NCBI GenBank assembly: GCA_977020255.1
Contig: CDROCS010006203.1
Span: 124,001 to 188,000 of the forward strand
Reading direction: 5' to 3'
Length of the DNA: 64,000 bases
Source: Obrimoposthia wandeli
Taxonomy: Eukaryota
Each line of letters opens with the position of its first letter. The first letter of the stretch is position 1. The notes beneath the pieces were generated by a model, which saw nothing but the letters and a program-made list of their open reading frames with translations, did not search any database and was not told the origin of the DNA. The position numbers and the translations under genes are program-made. Of the stretch, positions 8,801-53,800 are shown in pieces.

Positions 8801-11800
8801 CATTTGGGGAAAATTCTGATTACTTTTACTTCTGCATTTGTAGATGAAAATGTGGTGACAAGCGTTGAATTATCTCGCTGACAACTTTGGATATGTGAAA
8901 AATTCTTCTATATGTGTTAAAAAAACTAAAAATACTAAATTATGTTCTGAAAACTACTGTATTTACCCACAGCTAAGAAGCCACACGCATGGTACGGACT
9001 CCGATCTTTAGAAAATATACCAAATAATAATTTACGCCCACAGATAAGAAGCACTATCTCCCTTTTAGTATTAGGTAATAAAGAAACATAGATAATGAAT
9101 GATTTTTTGTGTGTTCCATACAAGTTGTACCAAGGTATATTTGAGCGTTAGTGACGTTCTTTAGGTAAGGTATTTGATTTAATCAATTGCACTCCAGTTT
9201 CTTTCATTTCACAAACATACTCGGCATTGTATTCACCATTGTCTTCATCAGAATCCTCAACATCATCATTATCATCGTGTCATCTTCATTAGAATCATAT
9301 CAAGCTGAGGCGTCTTTGAAAAAAAATGCATAAATAGTTTATAGTCGTCAGAACCGCCCTTTACACTTAATATGCAACACTTTTTGAAAGCCTTCGCAAT
9401 TATTTTGGGAAGAATTGCCTCGGCACATATTTCCACCTCTCTATCATCCACTTACAGTACATTTTCTCGAGAGAAGCTTTGAAAAGCTTGTTGAGGCTGA
9501 CATGAATAGGTTGAAGTAGAGATGTCAAGCGCCCGGGAATAATTACCAGACGAGTATTATTTTCTGCAAGTGCTTATTAGACAGATATGCATTTGTGAGC
9601 GGAGTATGAATCTAACACCAATCTGAAGCCGCCGATTTAATTGGCCCAAACAGTTTTTACCCAATCTAAGATCAACTACTTATATATCCAGCCTTACTTT
9701 GAGATCATACAAATATTCCCCGCAGAAAACTATATAGATAGTTATATATAGTTCCGTGAACTAAACGTAACATAATACTTATTCAACAACATAGATATTT
9801 AAATATATTTATGAAATTTCCGCGTATAGTACGCACCTCAAATTTTGGATTTTGTAAATCGATGTTTCGGTGTATTTTATCCGTGGGTAAATATGGTATT
9901 AAAACATAAAGAAAATTTTAAAATTTTAAAAATGTTTAATAAAAAGTACATAGAAAACATTTCTTTGATGCTTGAGGTAGTTAACTACAGCTTACCTCGA
10001 CAATTTTCCAGCAATGCTCTTCCAAATGGGTGGGCCCAGCTACCTCAAGATCCGAGCTTGCTGTACATGCAGTAGTAGCAGAGGTGGCGTCAGCAGCAAC
10101 CTGTGGGGGCGGTCTGTAGTCTGCCTGGTACTTGCAGATCAGAGTAGCCACCTCACATAGGGTCATGACGCGCTTGTGCGACTTCTCGTAGCTGGCACAG
10201 TTATTGATAATGCTGGCCACGGCCACGGCTGCACACACGTGTCTCTGCTTGCTACTGTACTTTCCACAGCCGGGGTAGCTTCGCGTCACCAGAACTGCAC
10301 AGGACACCGACAGTAACTATCGCAATTTGAATTTATCTAATAGAAAGCACAAATAAGATCATTCACAACCTCGAGCCCACAAATATTCGATCAGGCACAT
10401 CATTGATCATGCACACAACCTAGATAATGTACAATATAAACCACACATAATCTCGATCATGCACAACCTCGATCATGCCCAACCTCGATCATGCACAACC
10501 TCGATCATGTACAACCTCGATCATGATCAACCTCAATCATGCACAACCTCGATCATGCTCAACATCAATCAAACATAATCTCGATCAGGCACATCATCGA
10601 TCATACACCCAACCTAGATCATGTACAATATAAACCACAAATAATCTCGATCATGCACAACCTCGATCATGCTCAACCTCGATCATACACAACCTCGATC
10701 ATGTACAACCTCGATCATGCACAACCTCGATCATGCTCAACCTCGATCATGCACAACCTCGATCATACACAACCTCGATCATACACAACCTCGATCATAC
10801 ACAACCTCGATCATGCACAACCTCAATCATGCACAACCTCGATCATGTACAACCACAATCATAATAAACCTCGATCATGCACAACCTCGATCATACACAA
10901 CCTCGATCATGCACAACCTCGACCACACACATCCTCGATAATGTAAAACCTAAAAATCTCACATTGCTTGTTTCCATCGTGAAGCTCGCGAGTGCTAAAG
11001 CGACCATGGTTCGCACCCTGTAGCAGCATTTTATTCTCGCTTGGATCTGGCATCTTCACGGAGAGGTGATCGAAAAGCAGCTTCAGGTCCTGTCGACTGT
11101 AGATCATGAAGCTACGATAGAGAAAGGCAAAGTCCAGGAAGTTGAGACTGCTCTTCTTGGAAATATCATCGATGTTGCCAGAGTTGATGCCGCTAGATCC
11201 AGGAAGAGTCTGGTGGAAGTGGTGATGGTGCTGCTGCTGCTGCTGCTGCGTATTCAACGACTGAGACGGTGAGTCCAGGTAGTCGTACTTGCTTCCACGC
11301 TGCATCTTACTGTCGATGTCTACTGACATAGTCCGACCTGCACGAATTTCACAATTTTACATCAAAATCAGTCTCACTATCGTAATAAAACTTTAATATA
11401 TTCAAATATTTTATCAGTTAATAGATCATGTTTTTCGATCAGATTGGCTATCATTAATAAATGTTTATAATACATGATTTCCAAAACCTTTTCCGATGCA
11501 AAATATTTTTTGATTCAAAACCGTTTTGGGTATACATAAATTCTAATTCCGTTTTATGATCGTAATATAAATAAACTTATATTTTTATAAATAATAAATA
11601 CATACAAAAACAGCAATAATATATTAAAATATGTCTTTTTTAATAAAAAAGGAAAAAAGTATGTTTAAATTTTTATATTCGTCAGAAGTACTTGACAGAT
11701 AAAACAAAATTACTTTGAATTTTTGCATACAATTTATTTCCTCATGCAATTGCAATGACATTGTAACAATTAATGAAAACAATACCTTTGTTTCTTATTA

Positions 11801-14800
11801 TCACTTACTTTTTTATAAATTTTGACTTTATACTTGAGAGTTTGGACTCTCAAGTCCGGAACAGCATTAAGTCTACAGAGAAACTCTGATATAATGAATT
11901 TCAATATAACGAAACCCTACTACAACGAAACGATTTGCTCAATCCATTTAAATGCGTTATCATGAGGTTTTACTGTATTTCGGCATTTAGTTTATTATAA
12001 CCGTTGACTGTGAAAATCCAGTTTCACACAATTAAGTAGTGGGAAATGGCAGTGCTGTTCGTACTGTTTGCTTAACAATATCAGGAAATTCGTGGATCAA
12101 ATTGCGCCAAAAACTTATTCATCATCGAGCCTTTGCTTCAATGAAGTGTGAATGACTGCGTAATCTGATGCATAAAGTTTGAATGGTTTTTCTGTCAATT
12201 AAAATGACTTATTGATCCAACTGTTGTTAATATTTTGGGAAGTACGTGACAAAGTTTTCTTGCTATTTCTTCACGAACTGTTTTATGCAGTTCACTAAAA
12301 ATTTCTGCAAAATATTCATGTACGATTGAAAAACCTTCCATATTGTTCTCGATACATAAATGCCAAAACGGCAATTTGCAAGATGTTCCTGACTTTATCA
12401 TGTGCATTGAACACTGTAATGTTCTTCCCCTACAGTGATAAGTTCAATTCGTTCAGTTTGGCAAAGATGTCAGATAGATATGCAAGTCTCAGTAGCAAAG
12501 TTAGATATATTAAATATCCAGATAGTGAAAACATTTGTGGGCTAAAGAAAATAGAGAGATCCTACCCAATTCAAATACTCGGTAAAGATTCTGGTCACAT
12601 GACCTCCTTCTCACCTCAGTGTGCAATATTAAAACACAAGATTTTGAAAATTCCCGATTGTAAAGGTTGAATTTTAACAAAGTTCATAATTTTCACTGCA
12701 ATATCCAAAACTAACACGAACATATCAATGTACAAGTACCTGCCTGTGAAGAATACAGTGACTACTAGTACATATTGGTACAACATATTTTATTCGTGTC
12801 ACTGATCCAGATCATTTCCGAACAACGCATTAGCTCTGTCAGTGCAAATATGCTAAGAAATTATGTGCTTCTTTATGTAATTGTTAAAATATCTTCTCCA
12901 CAAGCTAATGATTTACATAGGAGAAAATCTTCTTCAACTGCTGTAGTAAAAAAACAACGTAGAAACAGTAGCAAAATTTATACGTCTTCTATATCTGTGG
13001 ATTCATCAATTGTAGAAAAGTGCATCCATGCCGCGTAGGTATGATATCAATTCTTTCTCAATATATTCAAAATTTCTTGAATACATCGTTACATAGTATT
13101 GGAATTGCATACATTTTTGCCACTCTCTTCATTCTGCATACATAACATAATCTACTTAGCCAACGGCTTTAGTAAAGTTTCAGCTGTTGAGTGTGCTTCC
13201 CCAACCTGAGCTATGCAATAACTCACCTGAAATGATGTTTCTGATGCATTCTAAGGGTCTCCTTTAACCATCTTTGACATTAAATGCTGGTTACTTTTGA
13301 GCGTATCCAACTTTCTTCTAAAGAATGTTACTGTGGTTTGTATTCGGTTAGTCGTAGGTTTTATAGGGTAATTTCAATTTGGAAACTAAACTATTAAACT
13401 AGAATCAAGAGTGTTTATAGTTTGGTGAATCGCGACTAGTATGTCGAATGAATGAATTGATTTTGAAGGTTTGTGGGACCGCTGCTGGTGAGTTGAGAGA
13501 ATTGATTGTTTTTACAGGCCACGAAAATATATTTTAAAACTGATTGGGAACGTAAATTTTAATTTAATTAGCATTTATTAAATTTTATTTAATGTTTAAT
13601 ATTTAAATTAATATTTAACACATAATGCCATATCAGCAATCATAATCAAGATCCCAACAGAAGTGTAAAGTGTCGGTTCTAAAACAATAGCACACAAAGC
13701 CCCCCCCCCCGAACAAGGCACAAGGAACAAAGCACATCTGAAATTTGTTTAGTCATACAGATGTGCTTTGTTCCTTGTGCCTTGTTCGGGGGGGGGGGCT
13801 TTGTGTGCTATTGTTTTAGAACCGACACTTTACGTCTCGAAATTTGTTTGGTCTTATGCGTCACTTACGATTATGTAGGTTAATATTTTGTAACATTAAG
13901 TATATAGTTCAAAAATTTAAAAATTCTAAATTTAAAATTTAAAATTAAAAAATTTAAAATTTAAAAATTTAAAATTTAAAATATGAAAATTAAAAAATTA
14001 AAATTTTAATTCGAAAATTAAATATGAAAATTTTGAAATTAAACACAATTGACCGTCCCAAATTTTTATTTGCAACTATTTAATTTACTTAGTACTGCGA
14101 CCTCATTCCAGGAGTTAGACTGCCCCGCATAACCGGACAGTTATCGCATATTTATCATAAGAAACGTTATTGTTTATAGTAGGAGTCTATATTTATATAA
14201 TGAATAAAGCAAAGTAACATCGATAAATATATATTAGTACAATTATAAGCGAACTTGTCCATCAGTAATTTTCCAGATTGGTTTATGAAGACCTGTACAG
14301 TTGATTTTGTATCCCTGTATTGAAATGACGATCATCCACTTGAGTCCAGTTCCCATATTGTCAACATTAAAGTCGTGATCTCGCTTGAAAAGATTAGGAT
14401 CAGCTCGAATTATTATATGATTCCCAACTATAATGTTGAGATGCATCGACTCAAAAGTTTTGTTAAGATCATCAATATCTGACGGATTTAATCTATGTAT
14501 CTTGAAATCGTATTTTGACTTATTCAGAGCCACCGGAAACATGAATCCATATATGATTGGAGTCTTCAAAAAATTCATTTGCCAGTTATAAAACATAACC
14601 GGCTTGGTGTACTTCAAATCGTTAGACTCAAATATTACATCTGATGGTTTATTGTTGAACGGTTTCTTATGTTTGGGTGTAGAGACTATATCATCAATAA
14701 AGAGATCCTCATTTGTTGCTTGCTTCTCAATCTTGATAGTCTTGGTTTGTTTATGGTTGTTGCTTGTCATAGTTTGCTTCTTTGGTTTTGATATAAAAAC

Positions 14801-17800
14801 TACATCATCATCATCGGTATCCACATCTGTGTCTGTAAGCCTTGTTGGTGGTGGCTTCTCGAACTTAAGAGATTTAGTTTGTTTAGAGTTCATATCAAAA
14901 TAATGAATTCTATACCAAAAGTGGTAGCTTATATATATATATATCATACTCGATTCTGATTGGATAATCTTTAGCTTAAAAATTTTATATATAGATTGGG
15001 TTATTTCCAATAATTCAATCATGAATCTTGCAAATATTAATTATAAAGGTAAAGTTAAAGGATACATCAGTCACTTACCCTTCAAAACCGGGAAACCATG
15101 TCAGTACGTGCACAGGTGTAAGGATTATACCCTTATAATCTTCCGTTCAGGTATGTTTTTTATGTTAGTTAGTTAGTTATTATTAGGAGCATGCAGGATA
15201 ATGGGTTGCAAGAAACCTATTACTACAACTTTGCTCAAGTGTCCATTTAGAATAAAGATTGATCGTATTCAATCCGTAACGGTTACTGTCGATTTAGGTA
15301 AGAAGGTGAACCTATACAAGTTGTCTCAAAAGTGTGGAGCTGCATGCATGTTCGAACCTGAGTTGTTTCCTGCTTTAAGGTTTACAAAACACAATCCTCT
15401 GTGCGTCAACATATTTGCAAGCGGGAAAGTGGTCATACTCGGTCTCAAGGATTTGGATTATCACTTTGATGTGACTTTGATAATAACTGATATTTTACTT
15501 TTGATATAAACAATAAATTTTAGTTGAATTTTATTCTTACATGATTTGAAATGCTAGTTGATTATATACTTCATTATACAACTGTTGATGATGTTTTAGT
15601 TAGACGAAAAGTAGGTTATTCTAGAATGAAAGTTTTACACTGGAAATATAGACGTGAAAGTGAAAGATTAAGATCATTAATTATAAATTTTAAAGGGAAA
15701 CAATCTATAAATGATTTAGCTAAAGCCGGATTTTATAAACATGATGATGATTCAACCGATAAAGTAAAATGTATATACTGTCAAGGTGCGTTATCCGAAT
15801 GGGAATGGTATCTTAAACCAATGAAGCAACATATGAAATTTTTTCCTACATGTCCATTTCTTTTAAAGTTAAATGTTTCAAATGTACCAATAATTGAAAC
15901 TATGAACAAGAAAATCGATTTTGATACATCACCATTGATTGGAAAAGTACATGTATCAGATATTGATATAAAATTACCTGATATATGCTATTCAAAATGT
16001 TTAGGACCCTATAATGAGGCTAATGTTATTGAGAAAATCGAAACAGATTGTATAATTGAATATCCATTGACTATCGAGAAATTCGATATGTTGATGGATA
16101 CAAACCAAATCAGATATTTGAAAAAGTTTTTCACAAAAGATAGAATAAAATCTGTTTTAAAATATAAAATGATGCGATATGGTGAATACAATTCACTATT
16201 TGAATTGCTTTGTGATTTATCTAATTTAGAAATGAAACCTGAAAAACAATATATAAATATACTTTCATACATTTTAAAGGTACCCGAATGTGTAGTATGT
16301 TTAAATAATCATATTGAAGTAGTATTTCTCCCTTGTGGACATGTAAATACATGTATATCATGTTCTAGAATGTTACATTCATGTCCAGTATGCAGATGTC
16401 TGATTGAACGGAGAGTAAGAAATGTAAAATTTCATGGTATAAACAATTGAAATTTATGATTTATATAAATGGATGAAAACGATAAATTAGTTGATGATGC
16501 AGTCGAAGAAATTATAAATGGAACAATAAATGGAGTTCAATACTTTTCTAGTTTTGATGGACTTTCTCGTAATAATATAAAGGAAATTGTTTGCACCCAT
16601 GTATATAGAGATATCAAACGAATTAAGGATTTTGAAACATTCGTTCAAATTAATCGTTCAAACATGATGTATATAACCTTTTCTGCGTCAATTTTTAATT
16701 CTCTGTTGTTGTATATATTAATAAAACGTATATAAACAATCGTTTCTTTTGATTTATTATTATTGATGATGATAAAACTTAAAAATAACGCGGTTTACCA
16801 AATAGTAGGACCTAGTGGGAGTGGGAAAACACATTTTGTAACTAAATTACTTCAAAATAAAAACATGTTTAATCAAAAGTTTAGTAGAATATACTGGCAT
16901 TACGGAGGTGTAGGTGAATCTGGTCTAACACGAACAGAATTAGGTAAATTGAAGGGTATTCATTTTATTAATGGTTTTGATAATAAATGGTCTGAGAGGT
17001 TAAATTCAGGAGATGTCATTGTAATTGATGACTTGTATGATGAAGCGAATAAAGAGTCGGGTTTTAATAACCTGTTTACCAAAATAGCTAGACATAGAAA
17101 TGTAACAGTGATTTTTATCACTCAAAATCTCTTTCATCAAGGCGGTCAACACCGTACTCGAAATTTAAATGTACATTATCTAGTATTATTTAAAAATCCG
17201 CGAGATCAAACGGTTATCGACTTTGTTGCCCGTCAAGCTTTCCCTTGTAATAAGCAATATTTGATTGACGCATTTCAAGATGCAACAACTAACCCTCATG
17301 GATACTTGTTTTTAGATTTTACACAGGAATGTCCAGACGATTTACGCGTGAGAACCGATATTTTCAATAATGATTTTGTATATAAACAAAAGAAAAGCCT
17401 ATCTACTTGTTAATCATGTCATTTATGAAAGAAACAATGCCTAGTGGAGTTGGACCTAAATGGAGACCGGGTGATAAATTACACGCTAATGATAACAAAT
17501 TTATGTTAAAGAAGAATGCTCATATTAAAAATCTTATTAAATCAGTGCTTCATCAGCGTAAAGTAGTCGATGAATCATTAAAGAAATCGGTAAAGACAGT
17601 AAAGAGAAAACCTGTAAAAAAGAAACCATTAAAGAAGAAACCTGTTAAGAAAGCAGTTGGAAAGTCGGTTAAGAAGTCGGATAAAAAGCATGTAAATAAA
17701 CTAGTTGGTAAATGGATTAAACTATAAACAATATTGCAAATAGTTTAATTCATTAAACATGTTATCAAAATCTATACTTCCCTACTTTCAGGCTTTAATC

Positions 17801-20800
17801 AAGGCTCCAAGCATATATAGACAACGTATACTCAAGTCATTTCCACCCTTTGTTATTGATAAGTTGGTTGTGGTCTTGTTTAATATTACAAAAGGTACTG
17901 TAAAAATCGGTAATCATAAACATAACCTTAGAAAACATCAAAAAGCTTTACTTGATTTAGTGAATACTAAAAGTAAAACTGGTAAACGTAGAGTAATTCT
18001 AAAACAAAAAGGTGGTTTTATCGGTGCATTAATACCTATAATTGCTACTTTAGTATCTCCTTTGATTGCAAAATTGATAAACTCATAAACAAAATGGGTA
18101 ATAACATACCAAACATCGATTTTAAATTCACTTGTTGTAATGGAAACGATATGGTACGATCCCGAAAACCCAGCTGGGTACAGCGGCATTGGCAAACTAT
18201 CATTAAAAAGTCAATCGACTCAAAAGAAAACTCAGAAATGGCTGAGCAATCAGCTAGCATACAGTCTAAACAAGCCAATGAAGCGGAAGTTCCCGACTCG
18301 AGCATACAGAACAAGCGGTCCTAACGATTTATGGCAGGCCGATTTGATGGAAATGATACCATATGCAAGTATCAATGATGGTAACAAGTATATTTTAACA
18401 TGTATTGACGTGTTTACAAGGTATGCGCGTGCATTACCTGTAAAATCTAAATCAGGTAAGGATATAGAGGCTGCTCTAAGTATAATGACTGATAAAACTG
18501 TCCCCATACATGTGCAAACTGATAAGGGTAAAGAGTTTTACAACAAAAATGTAGGTAGTTTATTTAAAAATTAAATATTGAACATTACTCTGTAGTTTCA
18601 CAATTCAAAGCTGCCCTAGTTGAAAGGTTTAATAGAACATTGAGAGATCGATTAAAAGACATTTTATTGCACAAGGCAATAAAAGATGGGTTGACGTTTT
18701 ACCAAAAGTAATGACTTCATACAATCACAGTAAGCATAGAGGTTTAGACGGATTGAGACCTGTCGATATTAATGATAAAAATGCAATGGAAATTTGGTTG
18801 AGTCGTAATCAAGTCGATAAAGTTAATAAACCCAAACATAAGACTGGTGATTATGTTCGGATATCAAAGTTTAGTGGTAGCCCCTTTATTAAAAACTTTG
18901 ATCAGAATTGGAGTGATGAAGTGTTTAGGATAGAGAAAATAGACAAACGTGCAAATCCTGTAATGTACTCTATAGTTGATGATGACTGTAATGTAATAAC
19001 AGGGAAATTTTATGAACCTGAACTACAAGTAATTGATAAACCTACACTTTTCCGTATCCAAGAAGTTGTAAAATCTAAAGGCCGTGGTAAGAATAAACAA
19101 TATCTCGTAAAGTGGCATGGATATTCTGAATCAACATGGATCAAAGCAAGCCAGATAGAGACTTCTATATGATTTTACCGAGTAATAGTTGTCCGAAAAC
19201 TCAACCTAATAATATGGCTTCATTATTCACTGTAGATTGGGAGAATCCAATTACGTTAAATGGTAAATGGGAGGCGGCATTAACTGAATTTACGTACACA
19301 AACACTCCTGTTATTTTAAATAAGGGCAGTGAAATTAATTATTCTATTAAATTATCCAATCAACAGACTGATCAAATATCTTTATCAGTAATTCATACTC
19401 AAGTAGAAGTAGAAAAGAAAGAACCGCAATTGCATGGTGATAAATCAGAACCAAAAGTTATTAAAAAGACAATTAATAAAATATCAAAACTCACCGTCAC
19501 GTCTAAAGATAAGATTGCAAAGCTTTCTATTTCCTTAAGCACAGTTGGTGTAGGTATTGATAAAAAGGATAATGTTGTACTAATAAAATCCGTCAACAAC
19601 AAAAAATTCTATATCAAGATGGATGCTGACGCTAAAAATGAATTAGGATTCATTTTCAATACATTAACTTCAGAAGGTTTCGAGTCTGATGATAAAGGAG
19701 TTTTACTTGGATCAACGTCTATCAGACCTGATTGCAGTGCACATAATTTACAATATATGCATTATAAAACCGGTTCATACAACAAGAAAATTGTATTTAC
19801 AGAAGATTTAAATAATAATAATGTAAATGCATTAGTAGCATACATTAAATCTAAATGCGACGTCATATTTAAAAGATTTTATATTGATGATAATGATAAG
19901 CTAATAAAATTTGTATTAAAGAATGGAATTGAGCATATTGGATTTGATCAACGTTTAATGTATGTATTAGGGTTAGATAAATCACGATTTACGGGCAACG
20001 GGTCTGGACTACCTCGATTAAATTACGAGTTTGATCACATGTACTTGTATTCTAGTCTGTGTGAACCTGTAAACGTTGGAGGTCAAATGATACCCTTATT
20101 AAAATCTATATGGTTAGATAAAAATAAAGCACCAGGAGACACGGTTAATATCGCAATATACAGACCCATGTATATCCCTTTAGCATCAAATGTAATCTCA
20201 AACATTGAAATTAATATTAGAAACGATGCAGGTGTTCCAATAAGTTTTTCCAACAATGCAAAAGTATCCCTTACCATACATGTCCGTTGTATAGATCAGG
20301 TATAAACAATCTGTATTCAAAAATAGTTGTCCATTACAGTTATGAATATAATTGAGACATTTAGTGGACCTCAACAAGGTGGTGAATTACCATATTTTGT
20401 AGGTAAACAGTACGGTTCGGGATGGTTGAAAACATTGGGGCGGTTAGCATTCCCTATACTGAAAAGATTAGGTCGTGTTGGAGTTAAAACAGTTCAAGAT
20501 GTAATAATGAACAACAAATCTGTGTTACCAATGCTTAAACAACATGCACTAGGGGAAGTTGCCGGAGCCATACCGGAGGCTAAGGAAGCTTTTGGTACAG
20601 TTGTTAAAATTATTAAAAATCGACGTAAACGTAAAGCATGTGAAGCAGCACAAATGGTTGAACCCGAAACTAAAAAGCAAGAGGGTAGTGGTAGAAAGAA
20701 AGCATCTAGTATAAACAAACGAAGAAAACAAGGTACAATATTTGCTTAATAATGGCTTGTGGTAAATCTGAATTATGTATTTTTGATCGAGCTTTGCCCC

Positions 20801-23800
20801 AGGTAGTTGTAAGTAATGGTAGCTTTGAAGATATATATCCAACAAACAATATTACCGGAACAAGAACATCAGAGATTCTGTTTAAAATTCAAGGTTCAGA
20901 TATTGAGTACTTAGATTTGAATGATACCTTGTTGTTTGTGAAAATTAAAGTAACGAAAACTGATGGTACAGAAATAGCTGTTGCAGATAATGTGGTCCCA
21001 TCAAATTTCTTGATGCATTCCCTATTTAAAAGCATAGATATAACAATGAATAATACTGTAGTAGAAACCCATCCTCAATATGCACAAAAAGCTATGATTG
21101 AAACCATACTAAACTATAGCACAGACACTAAAGACACTTGTTTGTCGAGTATAGGTTATGATGATGATGATGATGATGATGATAAGCGTAAAGGTTGGGC
21201 TGCTCGCTCAAAAGAAATTGACTTGTGTGGGACTCTTCGATCTGATATTTTTGAGCAACCAAAGTATCTCTTACCTGGTGTGTCTATCATGGTAAGACTT
21301 GTACCTAATAAATCTATGTTTAGTCTGAACTACGGAACGACTCTATCGCGAATCATATTTATTGAAGCTAAACTTAAAGTCAGAAGAATCAGAGTTGAGA
21401 ATGATGTTTTAATGGGACATAATATTGGTCTTGAATCTAGGAATGCTGTATATCCCTATACTCGCAGAAAGCTAATGTATCATACCTTAGCCATCGGTTC
21501 TACGAGTTTTTACAAGGATCAAGTGTTTGATGATGAACAATTGCCTAAATTTGTGTTGATTACGTTGCAAGCAGGTGAAAAACTTATCGGTAATGCTGCT
21601 ACAGACTCTTCAACATTCGATCATTCTAATGTTAACACTATCAGTCTTGCTAGAAACAGTGATTTTAACGAATCTTACAGTACAAACTTTGAAACAGGTG
21701 AAACCACCTTTGCATATGTCCAATCTATCATTAGAAATATGGGTAATTTGGATAAGAATATAAACAATGGCGTATCACTGGATGAATTCGAAACCAAATA
21801 TCCATTTTTCACGTTTGTTTTAGCCCCTGACTTTGATATCACGCAAAACCAATTAGCAAAACAGGGTAATTTACGCCTTGACATCAAGTTTCACAAGTCA
21901 TTAACAGTCCCAACAAACGTACTGATTTACGGGATTTTTGATTCTGAGTTTGAAATAACTAAAGGCCGACGTGTGATTGTATGAAGTGAGTTTTTAATTT
22001 ATGTTTTAAGATTTTATTAACAACAGTACTGTTCAGGTGAATGAAATAACTAGTTTGCTGCTCGGACCGCGATTTAAGGGTGTATACCCGTTGGAAAAAA
22101 TCCCAACATTAACGCCTGGGGGATATATTGTCAATACACATACCTCAAATCTTCCTGGAGAACACTGGATTGCGTTATTCGTGAGACGGAATTCTGTACA
22201 TGTGTATGACCCTCTTGGAGTATACTATCCAGGAAAACTTATCAAACATGTAGAGTCTCAAGGAAAACATGTATATTACAACAAAATTCGTTCTCAAAAC
22301 CCGCTGACTACTAATTGCGGTCCACTATGTATCTTATGGTTGTATGATCAAACTATATAAATGTCAAACCTTTTTATTTGTGTTGATTGGTAATAAAATT
22401 TGTATTCAAAATCGTATTTGTTTTATAAATAGCTGTCCCATCGAAATTTTAAAAAAAAAATTTGAGTTTTGATAAATTAAAAAATAGATTTAAAATCTAC
22501 TAATTAAGAGAAAATTAATGGTGTTAATTATTTTTAAAAATTTAAAGTTTAACGGTGTGAATTTCAGTTATGAAAAAATTCATAATTGATTGACCGTAAT
22601 TAACCTTTATGATCACGTGTGTAGCAACTAGGGAATAAAGAGTCTTTATTACGCATTCCTAGTTTGTAAGTACACACGTGATGTGTGACGTGTACATCTA
22701 GGGCAGCAACTACACTGATTGTGAACCATATATAAACAATCAGTGTAGTGTCATTTATCAATTTCATTCACAATTTCGAAAAGTAAGTATTTTGATTTTA
22801 TTTTTTATTATTTTTTTTTTTTTTAGATGTCAAAAATTATTTTTGCTTACAACAGCAATAAAAAATGGACAGTGAAGCCTGCAGTCGATGATGATGATGA
22901 TGATGATGATGTCGACTTGGATGCGACACCTGTCAAGAAAAGTAATTTTGATTATTATTATTATTATTATTATTATTTTTAATTTAATTTAGCAATACAG
23001 AGTGTCACACCACCGCCAATATCAATCGCACCATGGCTTTCAACGCACCATGCTCCTACTAAGAAAAGAAGCCGAAAGCAGAAGAAAAAGAAGAATATGC
23101 CAACAACAATATATGATGATGATGATGATGAAAAGAAGAAAATGTCAAAAGTTTTTTTATCTCTTGAGAAATCTTCTCACTCTCAACTTCCTTCTTCTTC
23201 TTCATCTTCTCATTCTCATTCTCATTCTCATTCTCATTCTCATTCTCATTCTCATTCTCCATATGATAATCATTTATATAAACTTTTTGGGGATATAAGG
23301 GATATAAAATCTTATTCTCCCGACTGCGATAGCTGCCCGGTAACGCGGGGCAGTCTAACTCCTGGAATGGGGTCGCAGAATAAGTTAATTAAATCAAGAG
23401 GTTACCCCTTACTTTTTAAACCAGGAACACCTGTTGGGTCACCTGTTAATTCAGTAGAAAATTTCAACGTAAATGAGATATACTCGGGTTTTGAAAATAT
23501 CCCGTTTAAAAAATATTTTAATCAATTAAAGAAAGTAAAAAATCAAAATATTGATTTAAGTAAACTTAAAACAGAAGGTAGGAAAGGTAAAAGATTTCGT
23601 CAGAAGCTGCGTAGATTGAGAAAACTACCAGCAGATATAACAATATTTGCAAATTTATTAGGGTCTTGCAAACCCATTAATATTAGTCCAGGTCTGAAAA
23701 TTACAGATCTGGCAAATAAATTATATGAAGTCTTTGAGACTGATCAAATTTATTTTAACCGTAATGGCATGCCCTTTGAAAGGGAAGCTATTATCGGTGA

Positions 23801-26800
23801 TGTTTTACATGAGTGGGCTATTATCCATGTATACCCTAAACTTCGTGGAGGAAGTAACTTATGTACATTGTACAAGTATTGCACAAACGTTAATCATGGA
23901 ATAGAATGTCATAGTGTAATGCTTAAATATTATAAATTTAAAAGCGGTTTTATTTGTCCACATTGTGATGTGTTATATTGTATTGACTATCAAACATTTT
24001 ATAATGATCATAAGGATCATCTGACGTATTTTAAGTCTTAAAAGTCAGCATACAAACGTAAAGTAATGAGAGTACCAACAATAGACAACAATAAAATAGC
24101 AAAAACTAATAATTTTACTGAAGAGTTTGATGTGGTAGACTCGTGGGAACCGGATAGTGTTGTAGAAATTGATACTTATCCTGAAGTTGTAGAAATTATT
24201 GAGCCTTTAAGTCCTAATGAAATCTTAAATAATAATAATATTGATGAACTTATAGATCAGGACGAGTTTATAACAGAAAATGATTTTTTCGACTCACTCC
24301 TAACTATTACGGATGATGACTTTGATAATATTGTTACAATTAATTCAGATAATATATTAACTTTTAACAATCAAATAGGAGGTGCAATTCAATCAAACCT
24401 TGTTTTTGATGTTAGTGGATTAAACATGCTTAAACTATACATTAACGATACTATGCTAACTGAACTTACTAGCAGTATAGATGTGTTTGGTCCCTGTAAA
24501 ATACAGTTTGGTGTTGAAACCGAATTTGTCAATAACGAGGGTCAACATAAAACATGACATGTAAGCTGTAAAGCAAATATTTTTGAACAAGATTTTATCA
24601 CTACAAGAACAGTTGAGCTCAACAATAAAATTGAAATTTATAAGGATATGAGTTCGGGATGGTCAGTATTTAAAATTCTGTTGGTATCCTTTAAATTTAC
24701 CGCACTTTCAAACGTAGCAGGATCATCATTTATAAAAACCCCGGTTGCGCTTGCTAAAACACTATCTATAGTGAACGTAAATAATACTGATGATCAGTGT
24801 TTTAAATACGCTGTTCTCAGTATCCTACACCATAAAGATTTCAATCGAAACAGACAAAGAGTTGAAAACTATAATGATTATTTAAATGAACTTATATGTG
24901 AGCCTGGTCCTATGAGGATAGACGGCATCAAGGCGTTTGAAAAACTCAATAATATAGCGATAACAGTATTCTCCTATAAACCTACAAAGGTAGAGCCTCA
25001 TAGTAGTCATCTAGTGTTTAAAAACCCAGATGTTAATGTTATTTATAGAACGAGTCTTAAACAGTGCGAAAAAGTAGTAAACTTGTTGCTGTTAGAACAG
25101 AGCGGTAATTATCACTATACAGGGATTACAAACCTGAATAGACTGTTAAATACTCAAAAATATAATGTGCGTCTCTTTTGGTGTGAGAAATGTCTTTTTG
25201 GATTTCGAACCACGATTTCATATGACAAACACAGGGCACATTGTAATATTAATACAGATTTAACAACCTTGTTTACAATGCCTAAAGAGATCAAGTGTCA
25301 ATTTTCCGACTGGTCTAAATCTATTGCGCCACCATTTGTTGTATATGCCGACTTTGAGTCAATACTGAGCCACATAATACTTTCAAACACATTCATAAAC
25401 CAATATCTATAGGGATGATTTTGAAAAACAACACTAATAATTCAATACAATATTTCAGTTATTACGGTCTGCAGTGTGCTAAACACTTTGTAGATAAATT
25501 AACTGAGTTGATAAATGGTGAAGTGGCAGATTTTTGGGTAAATAGTATTAATGTTCCTATGGTTTTTACTAATAATGACATGTTAAACTTTAGAGATTGC
25601 ACTAATTGCTATCTTTGTAAAAAATTAAACGATCGTATGGTTAGAGATCATGATCATATCACGGGTAAATACTTGGGTGCGGCATGCAACAAATGCAATT
25701 TAAGTCGCAAGTTTGCAAAGAGACCGGTTTTACCTGTGGTGTTTCATAACCTTATGGGTTATGATATACATCATATTTTAAAATATGCCGACTTGAAAGG
25801 TAAATCCTTTTCAATTATCCCTAAATCAAGTGAAAAGTTCATGTCCCTCCGTATAGAGATGAAGAGGGGGACATTGAAATTCATTGATTCATACCTTTTA
25901 CAACGTCAAGTCTTGAATCCTTAGTTTCATACTTGCCAAGTTGCCCTTATACTACACAATACCTAAACCCTAATATTGCAACAAGTAAGGCGGTATTTCC
26001 ATATGAATATATTAGTGGTATTGATAGGCTTATGGAGACGCAGTTACCCGCTAAATCTGAGTTTCCTTCTCGAGTCACTGATCAACAATATAATGAAGCC
26101 CTAATGATGTGGACCGTATTAGGGTGTAATACTATTAAAGACTACATGCTTGAGTATATGAAACTTGACGTGTATCTGTTATGTGATGTTTTTGAGGCCT
26201 TTAGACAGAAAGTAAGGGATGATGATAATCTAGAGGCGCTCAATTTCTTTAGTATCCCTGGTCTCAGTTGGGCTAGCGCATTAAAAACATTAGAGTATGA
26301 TGTGGATTTATTGCATGATCCCGAAATGTATAACATGTTTGAGGCAGGGATACGGGGAGGGATGACTTTCATCAATAAACATTACGTTAAAACAACAGAT
26401 GAAACATTCCTCCTATATATTGACATAAATAACTTATATGGCTGGGCCTTGAGTCAACCGTTACCACATACAGATTTTACATGGGTATATGACGGTTTTG
26501 AAGCGATAATTGAGCTTATAACTGAGAGGGATATTCACGGTAATATGCAGGACTTGAGTCTTAAAGAACATGGATACTTGTTGGAAATTGATTTAGGCAT
26601 ACCCATCAGTATTCATGATAAACTTGATGACTTACCGATTGCGCCTAATAGAGAAATCCCTCCCGGCTCAAAAGCTTCAAAGCTGTTGATGACCCATGAG
26701 GATAAAAATAATTACATCATACACTCACAACTACTACAATTTTACTTGTTTCTGGGTGCAGAAATTAAACAAGTGCATAGAGCAATAAAGTTTCATCAAG

Positions 26801-29800
26801 CTCCTATATTTAAAACATATATTGATATCAATAGCCGGAAACGGGCAGAGGGTACTACTACATTTGATAAAGAGTTTTATAAACTCAAAAATAATTCAAT
26901 ATATGGTAAGACAGTGGAAAATCTTAAAAAGCGTAAAGATATCCGTCTTACCAAGAATGATCGTCAGTTTACTAAACTTGTTTCAAGCCCTTGGTTTAAG
27001 AAGCATACCCAAATAACCGACAATCTCAATCTTTTATTTATGCAAAAGAAAGAAATTTGTCTGGATCGCCCATCATATATTGGTCAAGCTGTGTTGGACT
27101 TATCTAAACTACGTATGTACCAACTACAGTATAGTGATCTTGACCGGTATCGTAAGCAATATCATTGTGATATCAACATAGTTGCAATGGATACAGACTC
27201 GTTTTTCTTAGAGTGTAAGCATATAGATAAAGATGTCCTCTTAAAACAAATGATTAAAGATCAGATGTTAGATACGAGTAATTACCCGATCACACATGAG
27301 TTATTTAACGATTCTCATCGAAATGTGATTGGAAAGTTTAAAGATGAAAGCAAGGGGACAGTGCTTTATGATGAATGGGTATTTCTGAAACCTAAATGCT
27401 ACTCATTGAAAACGAGTATGAGGGCTAAGGGTATCTCCCTTAAACAAACCGAAATCAGACATGAGCATTACATAAAGTGTTATGTTGATGAAATTATAAC
27501 TGCCGGTCAGACACGTATTTTATCTCGCAATCATCAATTATTTACAATGTATAATGATAAAATTGCGTTAAGGTGTTATGACGATAAAAGGGTTTGGCTT
27601 GAGAAAAACAAATCCGTCGCATATGGACACTATAGTCTAAGATAGGTGTATATAAAATCTGGGGTAACCTCTTGAAAGTATTAACTAATATCCTCTTATT
27701 TTTAATGTGATAGTATGTATCTTTTTAATGCAATAGTATGTATATATTTTTAATGCTATAGTATGTATATATTTTTATTGATGTTTATTTTTAATACATT
27801 GTATGTATCATAACCATGTCTTGACTTCCTACTAGCTACTCATTGGATAATTTCATTGGTTAATTTCATTGGATAATTTTAACAAATTCTCTATAAATAT
27901 AAACACATTTCAATCAACCAATTTCTCATTATTTCAAATGACTACTTCTAAAGAAAAATTGCAAGCTCTCTATGATAACCTGAGCCCTACCTTGATGGCC
28001 CAGTATACTGAAAAGTACTTTAGTTTATTTGTTGCACCAGAACTTTTTGTCTCAAGGATTGAAGAACTTTATATGTATCACCTGTTTAATGGAGACTTTA
28101 AACCTAAAGTTGCAACAATCATTAAAATAGAAGAAGAAGAAAGCATGGATTGTGACAATGAATATAATTATGTATAAACATAGACTTTTTTTTTTTACTA
28201 AACTCCTACTATAAACAATAACGTTTCTTAAGATAAAACTGCGATAGCTGTCCGGTTATGCGGGGCAGTCTAACTCCTGGAATGAGGTCGCAGTACTAAG
28301 TAAATTAAATAGTTGCAAATAAAAATTTGGGACGGTCAATTGTGTTTAATTTCAAAATTTTAATTTTTAATTTTCATATTTAATTTTCGAATTAAAATTT
28401 TAATTTTTTAATTTCCATATTTAATTTTTTAATTTTTAAATTTTTTTAATTTTAAATTTTAAATTTTAAATTTTTAAATTTTAAATTTTAAATTTTGAAT
28501 TTTTAAATTTTTGAACTATATACAAATGTTACAGAATATTAACCTACATAATCGTAAGTGACGCATAAAACCAAACAAATTTCGAGACGTAAAGTGTCGG
28601 TTCTAAAACAATAGCACACAAAGCCCCCCCCCCGAACAAGGCACAAGGAACAAAGCACATCTGTATGACTAAACAAATTTCAGATGTGCTTTGTTCCTTG
28701 TGCCTTGTTCGGGGGGGGGGGGCTTTGTGTGCTATTGTTTTAGAACCGACACTTTACACTTCTCCCAACAGTTCCATATTTTCCTAATCGAGATGCGCAG
28801 TTTTCAAATGTTTCGAGAGTTTCGCAGGTGCAAAACACCTATTTGACACAATTTCAAGTTTGAAAGTATTATTTGATTGAACAAAGTAAATGAAAATCTT
28901 TGAAATTTATGAAATTTATGAAGTTAGAAAATAACAATAATAACCTTTAGTCCACTTAAATATTTAAAATATTATTTGATGATCAAATAAATGATAATTG
29001 GAAATATTTAATTTCACAATAAAATTGTCGTGTTTATTTAAATACAACCCATATTAAGTATTTAAACAACAACTTATTTGAAATTATTTAGAATTTCTGA
29101 TGCTAAGAAATAATATTCTGAAATTTTTGTACGGAACCCCACACTCCTTTGCGGAACCCACTGGTAAGGGAATTACTGTTATAATATAATTATGTCTTAA
29201 ATTACTTTGATGCATTCATGGCAATGATTTTCATTTAGAAATGAGTTCAAGCCGGCAGCAGTGAAACAGTTAAGAATATGATTTTACTTTTCTATCTATA
29301 AGTAAAATACAATAACATAAAAAATCATATAAAAATTTCAAACTAAAATTAAATGTTGTAAATATCACAAAACGAAAGGGAAAATACACGAATAGTTCAA
29401 TAACCACCCCTTTAATATATGTATAGATTAAAACACTATATTGTGTGTTGTATATCAATGTTTAAGTTTGCAACGAAATTTATCTATGTCATTTTACATC
29501 ATTTATACATTTTCAGAATTTTATTATGTACAGGAATGTAGCCGAGGATAAAACATTTACTTCATATTTCATCAAAATTGGCTTATTAAAACCGAGATTA
29601 TTCCCAATGTATATATCCTGCGCAAAGAATTCATTCACACAATATGTAGCATTAAATCACAAATTTTGTTGTTATTACACAATGTTTTATTTATATTTAA
29701 CATTTTTAATAAAATATAAAACTTCAGTCTATCTAATTTAAAAGTTTTGAAGCCTTGCATATTTGTCATTAATATTCTCCTCTTTTCCATACAAACTTTG

Positions 29801-32800
29801 AAGATTCTTTTGAAGCAGTAATAAATCTCGTATCGATCCTCGCTGATTTCCACATTAGGTCTCCTAAATGAGCAGCTTAAATTCTCAGAATAATGTAGGT
29901 AAGGAATGTTGGTAAATTAGAATCTTATTTTACCCGGAGGAAACCAGCATACATCGCCAGACATACATTTAGAGTTAGAAGAACAATCGAATCATTTAAA
30001 AGCTGCTTACCTTCCCCTCACGATATCTGCATTTTGAGAGTACCTGGTAAAGCAAATGATTACAAGCACTGGGTTGTAAGGTCCTGAACTTATTCTCAAT
30101 CTTTAAATGTATGGCTTTAATTATAGTCACACGATTTAATACCATTGGCATGTAGAACTGCCGGTGTGAGATGAAGGGAAATAGCAATTCAAGAAGATAT
30201 AGTGGTGCTAAAACGTACCGGAATGAGTCTTGTGTGGTAGATCCCCGACATGTGAGTAGAAGGTCGAATGACGAAGGTAGGACGGTGTTGTGATCATGGA
30301 GAGTTGCCGATTGGTGCATACATCTATATTGGCCCCTCCGTGGTTAAGAGTGTTTTTGGAGCCCTCAGAACCTCCGGTCGAGGAGGAACCCATTTGATTA
30401 GTGATCGGGTGGGCTTTACCACAGCTGCTGGATGATGATTGGTCGGAGACTCGCTGCTTCTGGTGGTCAGGGCTGTCCTGCTGGTTACTGCTGCTTGCCG
30501 TCGGCTTGACCTGGACATTGGGGACACCTCGTCAAAAATAAATACCAGAGTTACAGTATTATATGTTTCAATCTAGATACCATTATTAATAATGGCAATA
30601 AAATGGACAAGATAATTAAATCCATATAAAATAAACAAAATATTTATTACCAAATTTTATATTTAAAGGTAACAATTTGTATTTTATTGAACAAAATAAT
30701 CCAAAGCGTGCAACAATTTTTGTCAATCTTAAAAATTTCAAAATTTTAGAATTATAAATTATATTTAAATATTGTTAATTTGTTTTATCATCGTTTTTAA
30801 AGTTTTTGTACAAACTGGATGTTGCACCCATTTCTAAAAAGATAATAGTGACTCATTAAATGCCCGTTACTTCTTTCACCCTGATGCATTCTGAAGGTGT
30901 TGATGCACATAAAGTAGTGCTAAAGCAGAAAAAATAATATACAAAATTTATCTTGTAGTAAAATAATAAACTAATAATATGCACTTATAAGATGAAAATA
31001 TTGAAAAAAGATAGTGAAAAGTAAAAATATTTAACTATTGATGAGCAACTGCTTAAATTGCAGGTTAGTGTATGTACAAAGCCTGGAAAATATGAATAAA
31101 TTTATTTTAGCTATGATGGTGGTGAATATGCGTCAATACTGCTGACATAAACAGCGTTTATACTCCATTTACAAAAGCTTCAACAAAGCAGAGTGAAGCC
31201 GTCGGCATGAAACTAATGAATCCTTTCGTACCGGTGATGTACGTTCTCAACTTATCCTGAAACTTTAAATGGATACGATTTGTGGCTTTCACATGAACTG
31301 GCGATGTGGTATGAATCAAACATTCAAATATGTATATCTACATATAACGTGTAGAAGGAAAGATTGCCATTGAATGATGTGGCTATATGGTTACAAGATT
31401 TTATTCTAACTTTGAAAACACGAAGCTACCTCAAATTGCTATATACAATATATGTTTCAAGAACATATAAACAGTGAATAATATTACTGGGAACAATATT
31501 AATACAATTGAGTTTAATATCCAATCGAGAGAAACATAACATTTTAAAACATAATGGAACTAACAATTAGAATGACTTGGTTGAAGAATATAAATTAGCA
31601 CATTCAAATTTATTTTACCATACACTATTTAAGGAAGTGAAAATTCAATTAAAAATATTTGTATTGAAAAAAGAAATGGTAATTATGCTCACAAGGCATT
31701 GATGAATGAATACTTAATTATAGCAAAGATAAAAAACGTGTTTCATTAGATGCAATTGGTTATGATGCCGATGGTGATGTACGCATAGGGTGGATTGCAA
31801 AATCCCAAGAATTTGAGTTAAATTCGATTGGATTTTCTGAAACAATCTAAATATCTGCTTCTCGGTATGAATGTCGGTATAAAATTGGTTGTTGCAAATT
31901 GAAACTTCTCTTTAAAAACAAGTACAGTTAATTGTAGAATAAAAGTTATACATGCTGAAATTAAAGTTAGGCGGGTGAGAATTGAACCATCCGTATTGAT
32001 GACTCATAATGTTGATTTAGAAACTCAAAATGCGGTTTATACTTATAGACGGGGGAAATGGTACATTATTCTCTACCTAAAGGCACTACAACATTTTATA
32101 AATCACCTATTTTTGATGATGAGCAATTACCTAAATTTGTTTTGATTACATTTCAGCATAATCCTAAAATGGATGGGTCTAGTGCAACAAACTCTTCTGA
32201 ATTCGATCATTGTAATATCAGCTTAATTTCCCTTAATAAAAACACTGATTTTGTTGAAAGATACAATACAAACTTTGAAAAAGATGAGTACTTGTTTGCA
32301 TATATTCAAACAATGGATAGAAACATGGTATTATTGGATAAAAATATAAAAATAGGTATAAAATCTGAAGATTTTAAGGGACATTATCCGTTTTCCACAT
32401 TTGTATTGGTTCCTGAATTTGAAGTAAATCAACATCAATTACATAGACAAGGTTATAAAACATGTTATAAAATACTACTGAATTGTCATAGTTTGTGTTG
32501 TTTGTTATTGGTCATTAAAATATAGTCAATAAAAATTATCTAAATCTTAAATGCTTTTTATAAAATGTTTATATAAAAATTCAAGCTTCTGTAATTACAA
32601 TGGACCATTTTTGTGACCAAAGATTAGCAATTTTTTATTACACAGTGGAATAAAATATAACTTGTATTTTTTCCTTTTAATGAAATAACATAATTCTAGT
32701 GCTAGCTTATTAGGAAAATGTCATTAAAAAATCCATCTTGTCATGATTTTGATATATCGACATGATCAGAAAACACATGTTGATACACAAAACAACGATT

Positions 32801-50800: not shown

Positions 50801-53800
50801 CCGAACGACGGTGGTGCCCAGATGCATCATTTGCAGACAGAAAGGATCAATACCAGAGAGGCGCGGCTGTATTATCGAGATGGCAGACACTGCCGCCGCC
50901 GAAGGGGACCCGGGCCCGGTGGAGCCACAGCTCTGACAGCTGCAACTGCAGCTCAACATTTTTAGCACCGGCTTATAGCTGTAGTTGAAGAACTCCTCGT
51001 AGAAAGGACTGCACAAGAAAATAATGCCATTATTTCCCCACAACTCAGTTGTATTCATGTTTTCCCTGACGGGATTCTACATGTACAACCACTCACTCCA
51101 TGTATGACTCCAATCCAGGCCGAGCATTAATCTCGGCTGCGGTGCCAGAAGACGAAGGACCCGCCTGCACAAGGCTGTCGATACTGATGGTGTCACTATT
51201 GTGCGACTGGAACATGGAGATGTCGTTCAGGATTACCAGCACCTCCTTTACTTTGTTCATATTGATTAGGCCGCCCACACCAATCCGGGAGATGAACCGG
51301 TCCTCACCGTTGAAGTCAGCAATACACTGTAGGAGTACTGACATCATCATCACATTCATGCTCAACCTACCTATCATTCTTACAGTCATCTTCACCCTAA
51401 TCCTTCAACCTAACATATATACTACAAACATATAATTGCGGCATAAACTGTGCCAATATTACAAACATTAAATAAATGTAAATTAAATGAAAATATGCTG
51501 TTAAAAGAAATGCCAAAAATGATCACAATATTTAACACACTTTAAAATAGTGAAATTTAATTTTTTATCCCATAAGTAAACTTCCACTGAAATACAAAAT
51601 AATGTCCTAATCAAGAAGCATGTTATGAAATTATTAATTAATGTTCAGGCAATACAAATGTCTGGTTTAACAAATTTAAAGCACAGTGGTGAGGGAACGA
51701 ATTTAGAGAAGCTCAGAAATAGGATTTGTTTTAAGACATTAGTAGATAAACTTCAAGGAATTAATAAATATTCTAAATAGAATCGAACAATGTTAAATTG
51801 TCTCAATTTAACTTATATAGTAAATGTATTTCAGAGTCCTATTTTTTCAATTAAATGTTAAATGAATGTTAAATTTTCATTTAAATTATAGTTACGTATC
51901 AAAAGAGCATTGCCAGTGTTTCTGTAAGGAGACGTGCAGTCGAAAATGAGTGTTAATACTTGAGTGTATTGTTCATGTATTTGCAGGTTTACACGTTTGT
52001 GTTTCTTTATGTGTGACATTAGAGATATTAATTTCTTACTTCCATAGTTTACTTTAAAGAAAAATTCTTCATAATCTTCGTAAAATAACCAAGTTCTGAA
52101 TACAATGAGCCTACTCAATATAAATTATTATATTAGCCTTTTTGTCTATACATTTCTGAATTTACCCCTACTGGGGAATATTCTGCCCATGTGCCTGATG
52201 CAAGTGTTAAAAGGGTCACAAAACCCACCGTCACGCCGGCAGAATCGAACATGGGTAGAATGAGAATGTTGGGAGTTCTGTTGACGATCTGCTTCAGTTG
52301 ACTAAGGAAGATGCCGAAGAAGGGTACGACATTGCAGTTGCGGATCTTGAGGGCTCGTGCCGCTGCGTTCCGGTAGAAGTCAGTGGGCTCCACATTCAGT
52401 AGTTCCTCTGAAAGCAAATCGATGACCTTGAGCTCCGTCTTACACGAGTCACGGATTGTGAGCCAGAACGGCTTCAGCTTCTCTGATCTGCAAAGGGCGC
52501 TATCATTGCCAGAGAAATCCAAGAAATTAAGAAATATAAGATACACTCTACAACATAAAAGAATAGCTTGTTAACAATTTAGCGCACGTTTTTTAATTGC
52601 CAATTCTATATTCTTAAGACGCTAAATAATAATTATCTTTAGACACTTTAGCTTCAGGATAACCACTAACCAGACGGACTAGTTAGTTCACGAAATTCAC
52701 ATACCCGAACCTAATTTCATTCACTCCTGGTTTGCAGATTAAAGTAAGGCCAATTTTATGTCATAGATTTAATTATTTTCATTTATTTTAAAATAATTTG
52801 TTATATTTTAGAAGCTTTTGATACGTATATTATTTATAATCCAATTATATTTATTTAACAAAATTAAAAATTATTAAAAAAAGTTCATAACTCCTTCAAA
52901 AACTAAATCGAGGCATTTAATAGTTTAAGTAGGCAATGAGCAACATAACCAAAGAATTACACCAAAGTCGTTCAGAAACTATTAGAGAGCTACAAAACGG
53001 TCGGTTAGAAAATGAGCATTAAGTTACATTTTTTGTATAGCCACCTTTCTAACTTTCTGGAAAACCTTGATGACGTCAGTGATGAGCAATGTGAAAGATT
53101 CCATCAAGGTTATGTGAGATTGTATCTTAAAACGTAAATTTCTAAAATCGTCTATAAAATAAGCACATATTTCTTAAATGCGGTATTTTTATGGGTTTTC
53201 ACTTTTTCTATTTAATTTTATTACCCTTTTGGGCTTCTTACATTTTTTAAAATAGTTCAAAGTAATGCATCTTGATATTTTAATGATATTTAATATACTC
53301 CGATTACTTTTTCATTCTATTAATTTTAATTTGTTCCTCTATCTCGAATCTATTTTTAGTCCGATAAGATAAATTCTCGATAGACCTGTTTAACATTAAT
53401 TCAATGTCTGATCATTAATTCACATTTGAACTATAAATATAAATATTCATATATTTAAATTCGGAATAATAATAATTAATGTAAACATAAGATGAATTCA
53501 AATTGTTCTATGAATCTTTGCATTTGCTATTCTTGGTATTATTACATGGATATCAATTTGTAAATTTTGATCATTTTTGCACTTTTCTTTTCATTGTACA
53601 CATATGTGAGTAATAATTTAATTGTAAATTTTCGCTATATAAATTTAAAATTATTCATTACCATAGCAAATCTAAGAATCTATATATTATAAAAAAAATG
53701 TGATGAAATTACAAAGAAAATTCTCTTAAATTCGCAATATATTTTTAATGAAAGAATTTTAAGTGCAAACATGTTTTGCCATGCACGCTACTTTGCATTT

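Follow-up and report, generated by a model that had tools for sequence, protein, structure and literature searches.

The stretch of DNA analyzed here (the window) comprises 64,000 nucleotides of the Obrimoposthia wandeli contig CDROCS010006203.1 and harbors a single copy of a Polinton/Maverick element (13659-28763; 15,105 bp, 15.1 kb) that carries a long perfect hairpin just inside each of its ends. The hairpin is confirmed as real in the assembled sequence of this one copy. The element is best understood as a decayed animal Polinton in which the hairpin is an inherited part of the terminal inverted repeat (TIR), arose through a template switch, maintains itself by folding back and leaves protein-primed replication in place; we give this combined account a little better than even credence.

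The structure of the hairpin agrees with an earlier note on this DNA, which had described exact 76-nt reverse complements (including runs of 11 C and 11 G) around a 17-nt loop, a second such structure at 28589-28757 that differs only in run length and six terminal nucleotides outside of the stem. On the left side, 76 of 76 positions are complementary and both runs contain 11 residues. The right arms measure 75 nt (28589-28663, run of 10) and 77 nt (28681-28757, run of 12), and all four arms become identical once the homopolymer run is collapsed (run lengths 11, 11, 12, and 10). The loop sequence is the same on both sides. At each end, the stem lies inside of the TIR and begins six nucleotides from the target site duplication (TSD), leaving AGAAGT and ACTTCT as the termini. 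The snap-back of single strands that the note proposed is matched by a stable predicted fold at both ends (z-scores of −24 and −20), and none of the 200 shuffles was equally stable at either end. No further perfect hairpin of at least 16 bp is present in the window. The outer left arm contains the motif AACAA-n1/2-GCACA at 13683, 13712, and 13726; it occurs three times per arm, and 12 of its 13 matches in the window fall into the four arms from whose sequence the motif was itself defined. Sites of the type ACAAWG, which we take to be HMG-box-like, occur twice per arm, too few to be weighed. An identity of the stem as a miRNA precursor was rejected, as the Rfam matches stay below threshold (35 versus 70 bits and 32 versus 60 bits).

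Beyond the inner arm of the left hairpin, the arm end and the loop recur in direct orientation as a diverged copy. Positions 13832-13856 agree with 13734-13757 in the same orientation at 21 of 25 columns, a score reached in none of the 20,000 shuffles and in none of 6266 control slices taken from the window. Of the 25 columns compared between the direct copies, 4 contain differences, while the 76 positions of the arms contain none (Fisher p = 0.003). Because direct copies from the same event have diverged while the arms show no substitution, the hairpin appears to be old and to have been kept perfect, probably through fold-back copying. The diverged copy also preserves the original orientation of the loop, which therefore can still be read; this orientation is found at two of two ends, an outcome that free flipping would give one time in four. 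The resulting order of hexamer, arm, loop, inverted arm, and repeated arm end with loop is the expected product of one template switch-and-return. A single event of this kind can yield inverted and direct repeats together with hairpin loops, and quasi-palindromes become perfect through template switching, as described in PMC5453318. The short-range template switch mutations described there share the inverted repeat, the flanking direct repeat, and the later perfection of the arms with the present case; they are, however, chromosomal and involve short fragments, whereas the arm here has 76 nt, is located at the end of a mobile element, and occurs in both TIRs.

The proposed pathway would start during replication of one end, where the polymerase copies the arm and the loop and then switches strands. 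The arm would be copied backward up to six bases before the terminus, followed by a return near the end of the arm, which would yield arm, loop, inverted arm, and the direct copy of arm end and loop, as the relic suggests. Subsequently, pairing of the TIRs on a displaced single strand could transfer the new end to the other side of the element. From then on, the arms would snap back on each displaced strand and correct one another, while the unpaired direct copies drift. Replication would stay protein-primed, with a stem that stops short of the hexamer and leaves it single-stranded next to a duplex with repeated binding-site-like motifs. The hairpin would thus be tolerated and self-maintaining and would have no role as a primer. 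This origin by template switch, together with self-maintenance and compatibility with protein priming, is put forward as somewhat probable; it builds on the sequence itself, the predicted folds, the relic, and the state of the genes, from which every mechanistic step is inferred.

The comparison of the TIRs (531 and 565 bp) bears on the age of the arms. No substitutions are found in the outer 175 nt, compared to 12 in the inner 356 nt (Fisher p = 0.011); without the AT-rich array, the inner part still contains 8 substitutions in 226 nt (p = 0.011). The contrast between a clean outer part of about 175 bp and a substituted inner part, to which the note had pointed, is thus reproduced, with the caveat of a second clean stretch given below. 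Under the assumption that every inner difference postdates the insertion, the four arms should contain about 4.5 substitutions, and the probability of finding none is about 0.01. The inner TIR differences therefore either predate the insertion or the arms have been repaired.

Several points weigh against this reading. An inner TIR stretch of 114 nt (14027-14140) is likewise free of differences, so that the outer TIR is not uniquely conserved. Only one copy of the element is available, and a TIR pair is found in none of the nine loci of related elements that are at least 6 kb long. The direct repeat was identified post hoc, and its differences could stem from the switch event itself rather than from later drift. 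AGAAGT is imperfect as a trinucleotide or dinucleotide repeat. Finally, the hairpins may be transient, since the computed stability of the full TIR panhandle (−583 kcal/mol) far exceeds that of either local fold (−136 and −135 kcal/mol). An inner panhandle (−350 kcal/mol) can coexist with the local hairpins.

With regard to replication, the note had compared the ends to those of parvoviruses and suggested a hairpin-assisted role in excision, replication, or end repair. The predicted snap-back fold and the identical arms fit end repair; priming or transfer by the hairpin finds no such agreement. The 3′-terminal six bases match the facing sequence at only two of six positions and are mostly unpaired (predicted pairing probability 0.04-0.46). 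Hairpin transfer would lose the hexamer, and since both integrated ends retain it, such a transfer is not supported. No match to an HUH Rep, a tyrosine recombinase, or a telomere resolvase was obtained among 19 open reading frames (ORFs) of the element in Pfam and 10 in PHROGs, a scan in which five ORFs carry no assignment. T- or Y-shaped inner palindromes as in adeno-associated virus (AAV) are absent from the hairpin, and the loops are unflipped. The flip and flop orientations of the loop, which the note had chosen to detect hairpin transfer, are less specific than stated there, because an inter-strand template switch can also invert a spacer (PMC5453318, legend of Fig. 1). Protein-primed systems, as outlined in the text available from PMC4974454, initiate on a short terminal repeat, and Maverick ends bear conserved 6-bp motifs (PMC8097293, accessible text). 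The unpaired hexamer occupies the position of this conserved motif. Together with the unpaired state of the 3′ hexamer and the missing Rep-type match in the scan above, this argues for protein priming, presumably by strand displacement in which the displaced strand folds locally while the inner TIRs may still pair. A gene for a protein-primed family B polymerase (pPolB) and an ORF resembling single-stranded DNA-binding (SSB) proteins next to the left TIR fit strand displacement; the latter may, as a weak lead, hint at a single-stranded phase.

It can be asked whether the hairpin has instead been selected as a local origin, in which snap-back would rebuild a double-stranded origin on the displaced strand without the far end. 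The binding motifs would be doubled from three to six, and terminal protein and polymerase, provided in trans, could re-initiate faster; alternatively, the hairpin could shield the 3′ end and work analogously to folded Streptomyces 3′ overhangs. The stem stops exactly at the 6-nt end motif, the arms are kept perfect and hold nearly all motif matches, and terminal palindromes are combined with protein priming in Streptomyces (PMC4513846, in the portion available), yet copying alone accounts for the arm identity, the motif is derived from the arm itself, and neither compensatory changes nor cross-family conservation are demonstrated. The confinement of all five coding lesions to polymerase and integrase would suit a helper-dependent element with selected cis-acting ends, although the lesions may post-date the insertion and are harder to see in short genes. 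We regard a selected origin as rather unlikely. Similarly tentative is the broader idea that an animal Polinton lineage gained functional fold-back ends, be it as a self-contained origin or as a primer after trimming of the six-base tail, with helper or host enzymes replicating copies whose polymerase and integrase are dead. Hairpin-primed replication in the strict sense, where the 6-nt tail is lost or trimmed, synthesis by a polymerase of the host or of a virus starts from the fold-back, and the closed end is then resolved by a nuclease, appears clearly improbable. It can draw on the stable fold and on the element's own pPolB, which is broken and carries a domain of the endonuclease VII family, whose members cut branched DNA. 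It has also been proposed for virophage and polinton-like virus (PLV) ends (10.64898/2026.07.28.741278, model D, in the text at hand). The endonuclease VII domain is, however, also found in a distant relative (L056), and insertions of this type have been ascribed to inteins (PMC11161782, available text); the unpaired 3′ end, the hexamer at both integrated ends, the unflipped loops, the lack of AAV-like inner palindromes, and the negative Rep-type scan all speak against it.

Two further explanations are less probable again. A fold-back formed during assembly or library preparation would be in keeping with run lengths that vary between the arms, and assemblies do contain fold-backs, for example at the start of the contig L071. 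That fold-back reaches the contig edge, whereas the hairpin here does not; the junctions are identical at two sites separated by 15 kb, where the flanks differ and the TSD is intact, and the inner arm is succeeded by a diverged and not an identical loop copy. Moreover, none of the four intervals with frame changes in the element's genes contains a homopolymer run longer than 5, so the assembly does not appear riddled with run errors. Four runs of one sample contain 0.88-0.89 of the 1069 sampled words from 13659-23600; they come from one study and possibly from the source sample, provide no independent support, and have no bearing on the hairpin. An artifact is thus considered very unlikely. 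The least probable of these explanations is a 169-bp fold-back mini-transposon that inserted six bases inside of one TIR and was then copied to the other. The GT on both sides of the 169-bp unit (13663-13664 and 13834-13835) resembles a 2-bp duplication, but the match of the loop to the TIR sequence just inside of the unit is left unexplained, all four pattern matches in the 64 kb are the arms themselves with no copy outside of the TIRs, and no copy is found in the viral contigs scanned.

The element corresponds in most properties to animal Polintons/Mavericks (adintoviruses), as far as these are described in the available text of PMC8097293 and PMC8502044. Its 15.1 kb fall within 12.7-24.6 kb and its TIRs within the published 46-1447 bp, and it shares the 6-bp TSD, the AG...CT ends, the genes for pPolB, rve integrase, ATPase, protease, and a probable capsid as well as an IAP accessory gene. 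The perfect 76-bp stem within each TIR sets it apart. AGAAGT, which is one base off (AGT)2, is not an exact match to any of the three Maverick motifs listed in the accessible part of PMC8097293; its main text uses neither “hairpin” nor “palindrom-”. A literature search that left aside subscription papers, Repbase reports, and preprint supplements found no terminal palindrome for an animal Polinton. The text at hand of PMC8097293, PMC8502044, PMC8547959, PMC12220804, PMC11296320, and PMC11161782 does not mention a stem of this kind for the end of an animal Polinton, and the accessible portion of 10.64898/2026.10.13.758929 describes none but marks one palindromic repeat in a figure.

The closest counterparts are known from the protist Halocafeteria seosinensis, where four subtypes of virophages and one of PLVs have palindromes within their TIRs and beside the TSDs (10.64898/2026.07.28.741278, as are the following statements, all from its available text). 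Hairpin priming is proposed there, with an accident offered as the alternative, so the priming idea of the note is already in print for this virus group. The palindromes have 52 nt and show a preference for elements with non-pPolB replication genes. The present element shares the palindrome in the TIR beside the TSD and the rve integrase; it differs in its animal host, in the 169-nt unit with an origin relic, and in having a (broken) pPolB gene and no match to another replicase. The 17-nt loop exceeds the gap limit of 10 used in the Halocafeteria search, whose settings would therefore miss this hairpin. What is new here is that an animal Polinton with a pPolB gene has a long, perfect stem just inside of its termini and that the origin of this stem can still be read.

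Among other known systems, the inverted terminal repeats of parvoviruses and AAV likewise fold back over about 125-170 nt at both ends. In AAV, each repeat forms a double hairpin; synthesis is primed from its 3′ end, Rep introduces a nick, and flip and flop orientations occur independently (PMC11575299, in the sections available), whereas the present ends have a simple stem, an unpaired 3′ tail, no Rep match, and the same orientation at both ends. Streptomyces telomeres offer no more than a functional analogy, in that terminal palindromes on a single-stranded 3′ end go along with protein priming; they differ by several short palindromes, an internal origin, and end patching by Tap and Tpg (PMC4513846, text at hand).

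The perfect stem, the asymmetric loop, and the origin relic together provide a natural marker for the replication of Polinton ends. To our knowledge, neither the exit of a Polinton from the chromosome nor the copying of its ends has ever been shown, and the panhandle is still a model. Loop orientation across copies and the divergence of arms versus relic would report on a single-stranded fold-back step or a hairpin-transfer step. Terminal palindromes are thereby known not only from virophages and PLVs of protists but also from an animal element that carries a gene for a protein-primed polymerase. Published palindrome search settings (gap limit 10) would overlook ends such as these. If the hairpin is neutral, it would be a clear case of a template switch that creates and maintains a long terminal stem. 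If the fold-back ends are functional, they would mark a point within one virus group at which protein-primed replication gives way to replication from hairpin ends, and the mutation that produced the hairpin would still be legible; synthesis around a closed end would also give head-to-head molecules.

The assignment as a Polinton rests on long TIRs that enclose an element in the range of 12-25 kb, an exact 6-bp TSD (CCCAAC) at both borders, a family B polymerase and an rve integrase (both broken), and a packaging ATPase; a maturation protease is counted in, with a PF00770 match below cut-off. The insertion site is an intron of a phospholipase C-epsilon-like gene on the minus strand with exons across 2598-63033 (e.g., 2601-2927 and 52136-52570). 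The host gene was recognized by PI-PLC-X (E = 1.3e-12), a weak RasGEF match, and phospholipase C epsilon-1 as the top PDB match, which makes an animal the most likely host. The features of the element are collected in Table 1.

Table 1. Annotated features of the element and its borders, given in window positions.
Feature	Position	Strand	Remark
Left TSD CCCAAC	13653..13658	.	identical to 28764-28769
Left TIR, 531 bp	13659..14189	+	91% identity to right TIR over 567 columns
Terminal hexamer AGAAGT	13659..13664	+	not part of stem; presumed site of protein priming and integration
Left hairpin, outer arm, 76 nt, 11-C run	13665..13740	+	three AACAA-n1/2-GCACA motifs
Loop, 17 nt	13741..13757	+	identical at both element ends
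Left hairpin, inner arm	13758..13833	-	exact reverse complement of outer arm
Diverged direct copy of arm end and loop	13832..13856	+	21/25 columns vs 13734-13757
AT-rich short-period array in left TIR	13911..14009	.	longer right counterpart 28345-28511
ORF, C-terminal part like viral ssDNA-binding proteins (lead only)	14243..15022	-	
TBP-like ORF	15201..15509	+	PF00352 E=2.8e-13
IAP (BIR + RING)	15551..16450	+	PF00653 E=1.5e-13, PF13920 E=6.2e-11
A32-type packaging ATPase	16766..17413	+	PF04665 E=5.1e-07
Protein X / PX-like core protein	17759..18088	+	PF05829 E=3.1e-04, below cut-off
rve integrase + chromodomain, broken	18140..19172	+	PF00665 E=6.5e-11, PF00385
Probable minor capsid (penton), open frame	19136..20305	+	name suggested by gene order
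Major capsid protein, 410 aa, open frame	20752..21984	+	103 homologues
Adenain-type protease, probably spliced	21985..22360	+	PF00770 E=0.0051, below cut-off
Internal imperfect hairpin upstream of spliced gene	22612..22682	+	z=-4.4
Protein-primed family B polymerase + endonuclease VII domain, broken	24066..27645	+	
Right TIR, 565 bp	28199..28763	-	
Right hairpin	28589..28757	-	arms 28589-28663, 28681-28757; loop 28664-28680
Right TSD CCCAAC	28764..28769	.	matches left TSD

Relatives of the element were obtained from a metagenome scan (70 loci from 134 candidates) and a genome scan (1 of 333), while scans of viral contigs for relatives found nothing. The TIR of the element has no significant match among the 70 loci (best E = 0.10). 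Compared with intact relatives, the integrase runs through three frames, the frame changing twice between about 18560 and 18710. The polymerase contains an in-frame stop near 24555 and frame changes near 25380 and 25895. Its fragment matches PF03175 (E = 0.0035) and shows 35-52% identity to intact relatives, of which the L056 polymerase matches PF03175 with E = 6.9e-13 and additionally PF02945. These two genes, which make up 46% of the compared coding length, thus carry all five lesions found (p about 0.02, post hoc), and each of nine other genes compared with relatives aligns in one frame, including the protease. The polymerase and the capsid module share one strand, whereas L003, L008, L020, and L056 show the opposite arrangement. 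A 72-bp coding stretch on the plus strand (23323-23394), part of an unassigned gene, shares about 90% identity with the inner TIR (28238-28310 direct, 14078-14148 inverted); together with the inverted polymerase module, it may record one rearrangement.

The penton candidate shows 28-36% identity to ORFs at the same position in relatives. For the 410-aa capsid protein, no match was obtained in Pfam, PHROG, or PDB sequences, and searches of PDB sequences with capsid and polymerase profiles gave no matches. A neighboring capsid fragment that is 53% identical to the 410-aa protein matches PF21738 weakly (E = 9.2e-04). This second Polinton-type capsid gene is a broken fragment (31574-32525) 3 kb beyond the right end of the element, with 42-53% identity to the element's capsid protein and no further core genes seen nearby. 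The short TBP-like gene (15201-15509) is conserved in L002, L003, L020, L038, and L056.

The SSB-like ORF (14243-15022) scores 0.90 with the Pox_I3 and DUF2738 clusters, in which the respective family is on 10-17% of members. A four-sequence model (pLDDT 52.6) resembles African swine fever virus CP312R (Z 4.4, rmsd 5.3, 127 aligned residues), Enc34 SSB (Z 3.5), and T7 gp2.5 (Z 3.4), none of which reaches a Z of at least 5; a single-sequence model was useless (pLDDT 33). One homologue search for this ORF found none. It is common to L003 and L020 and weakly to L056.

A relaxed hairpin scan gave matches in 7 of 71 loci. The hairpins at L020 794-957, L025 35-100, and L056 88-217 fold well (z-scores of −7 to −10) and are not placeable at an end; those in L003, L008, and L013 were set aside as short, weak, or located within genes, and L071 1-396 was rejected as a terminus because it folds back at the contig edge within a host-like ORF. 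Within this Polinton group, strong hairpins are repeatedly found in intergenic positions upstream of genes (22612-22682 of the present element, L020, L025, and L056). The L056 hairpin lies near the contig start and contains a repeated motif in both orientations, and the 20-bp stem in L025 is preceded by six bases that start with AG. The L071 contig (1-3045), assigned to a bacterial genome bin, contains a zinc-finger-like ORF of eukaryote type (judged by eye), a Polinton ATPase interrupted by an insertion, and the edge fold-back, and is likely a contamination. In the host sequence of the window, tandem arrays with periods of 16 and 18 are located at 10357-10951 and 61857-62320.

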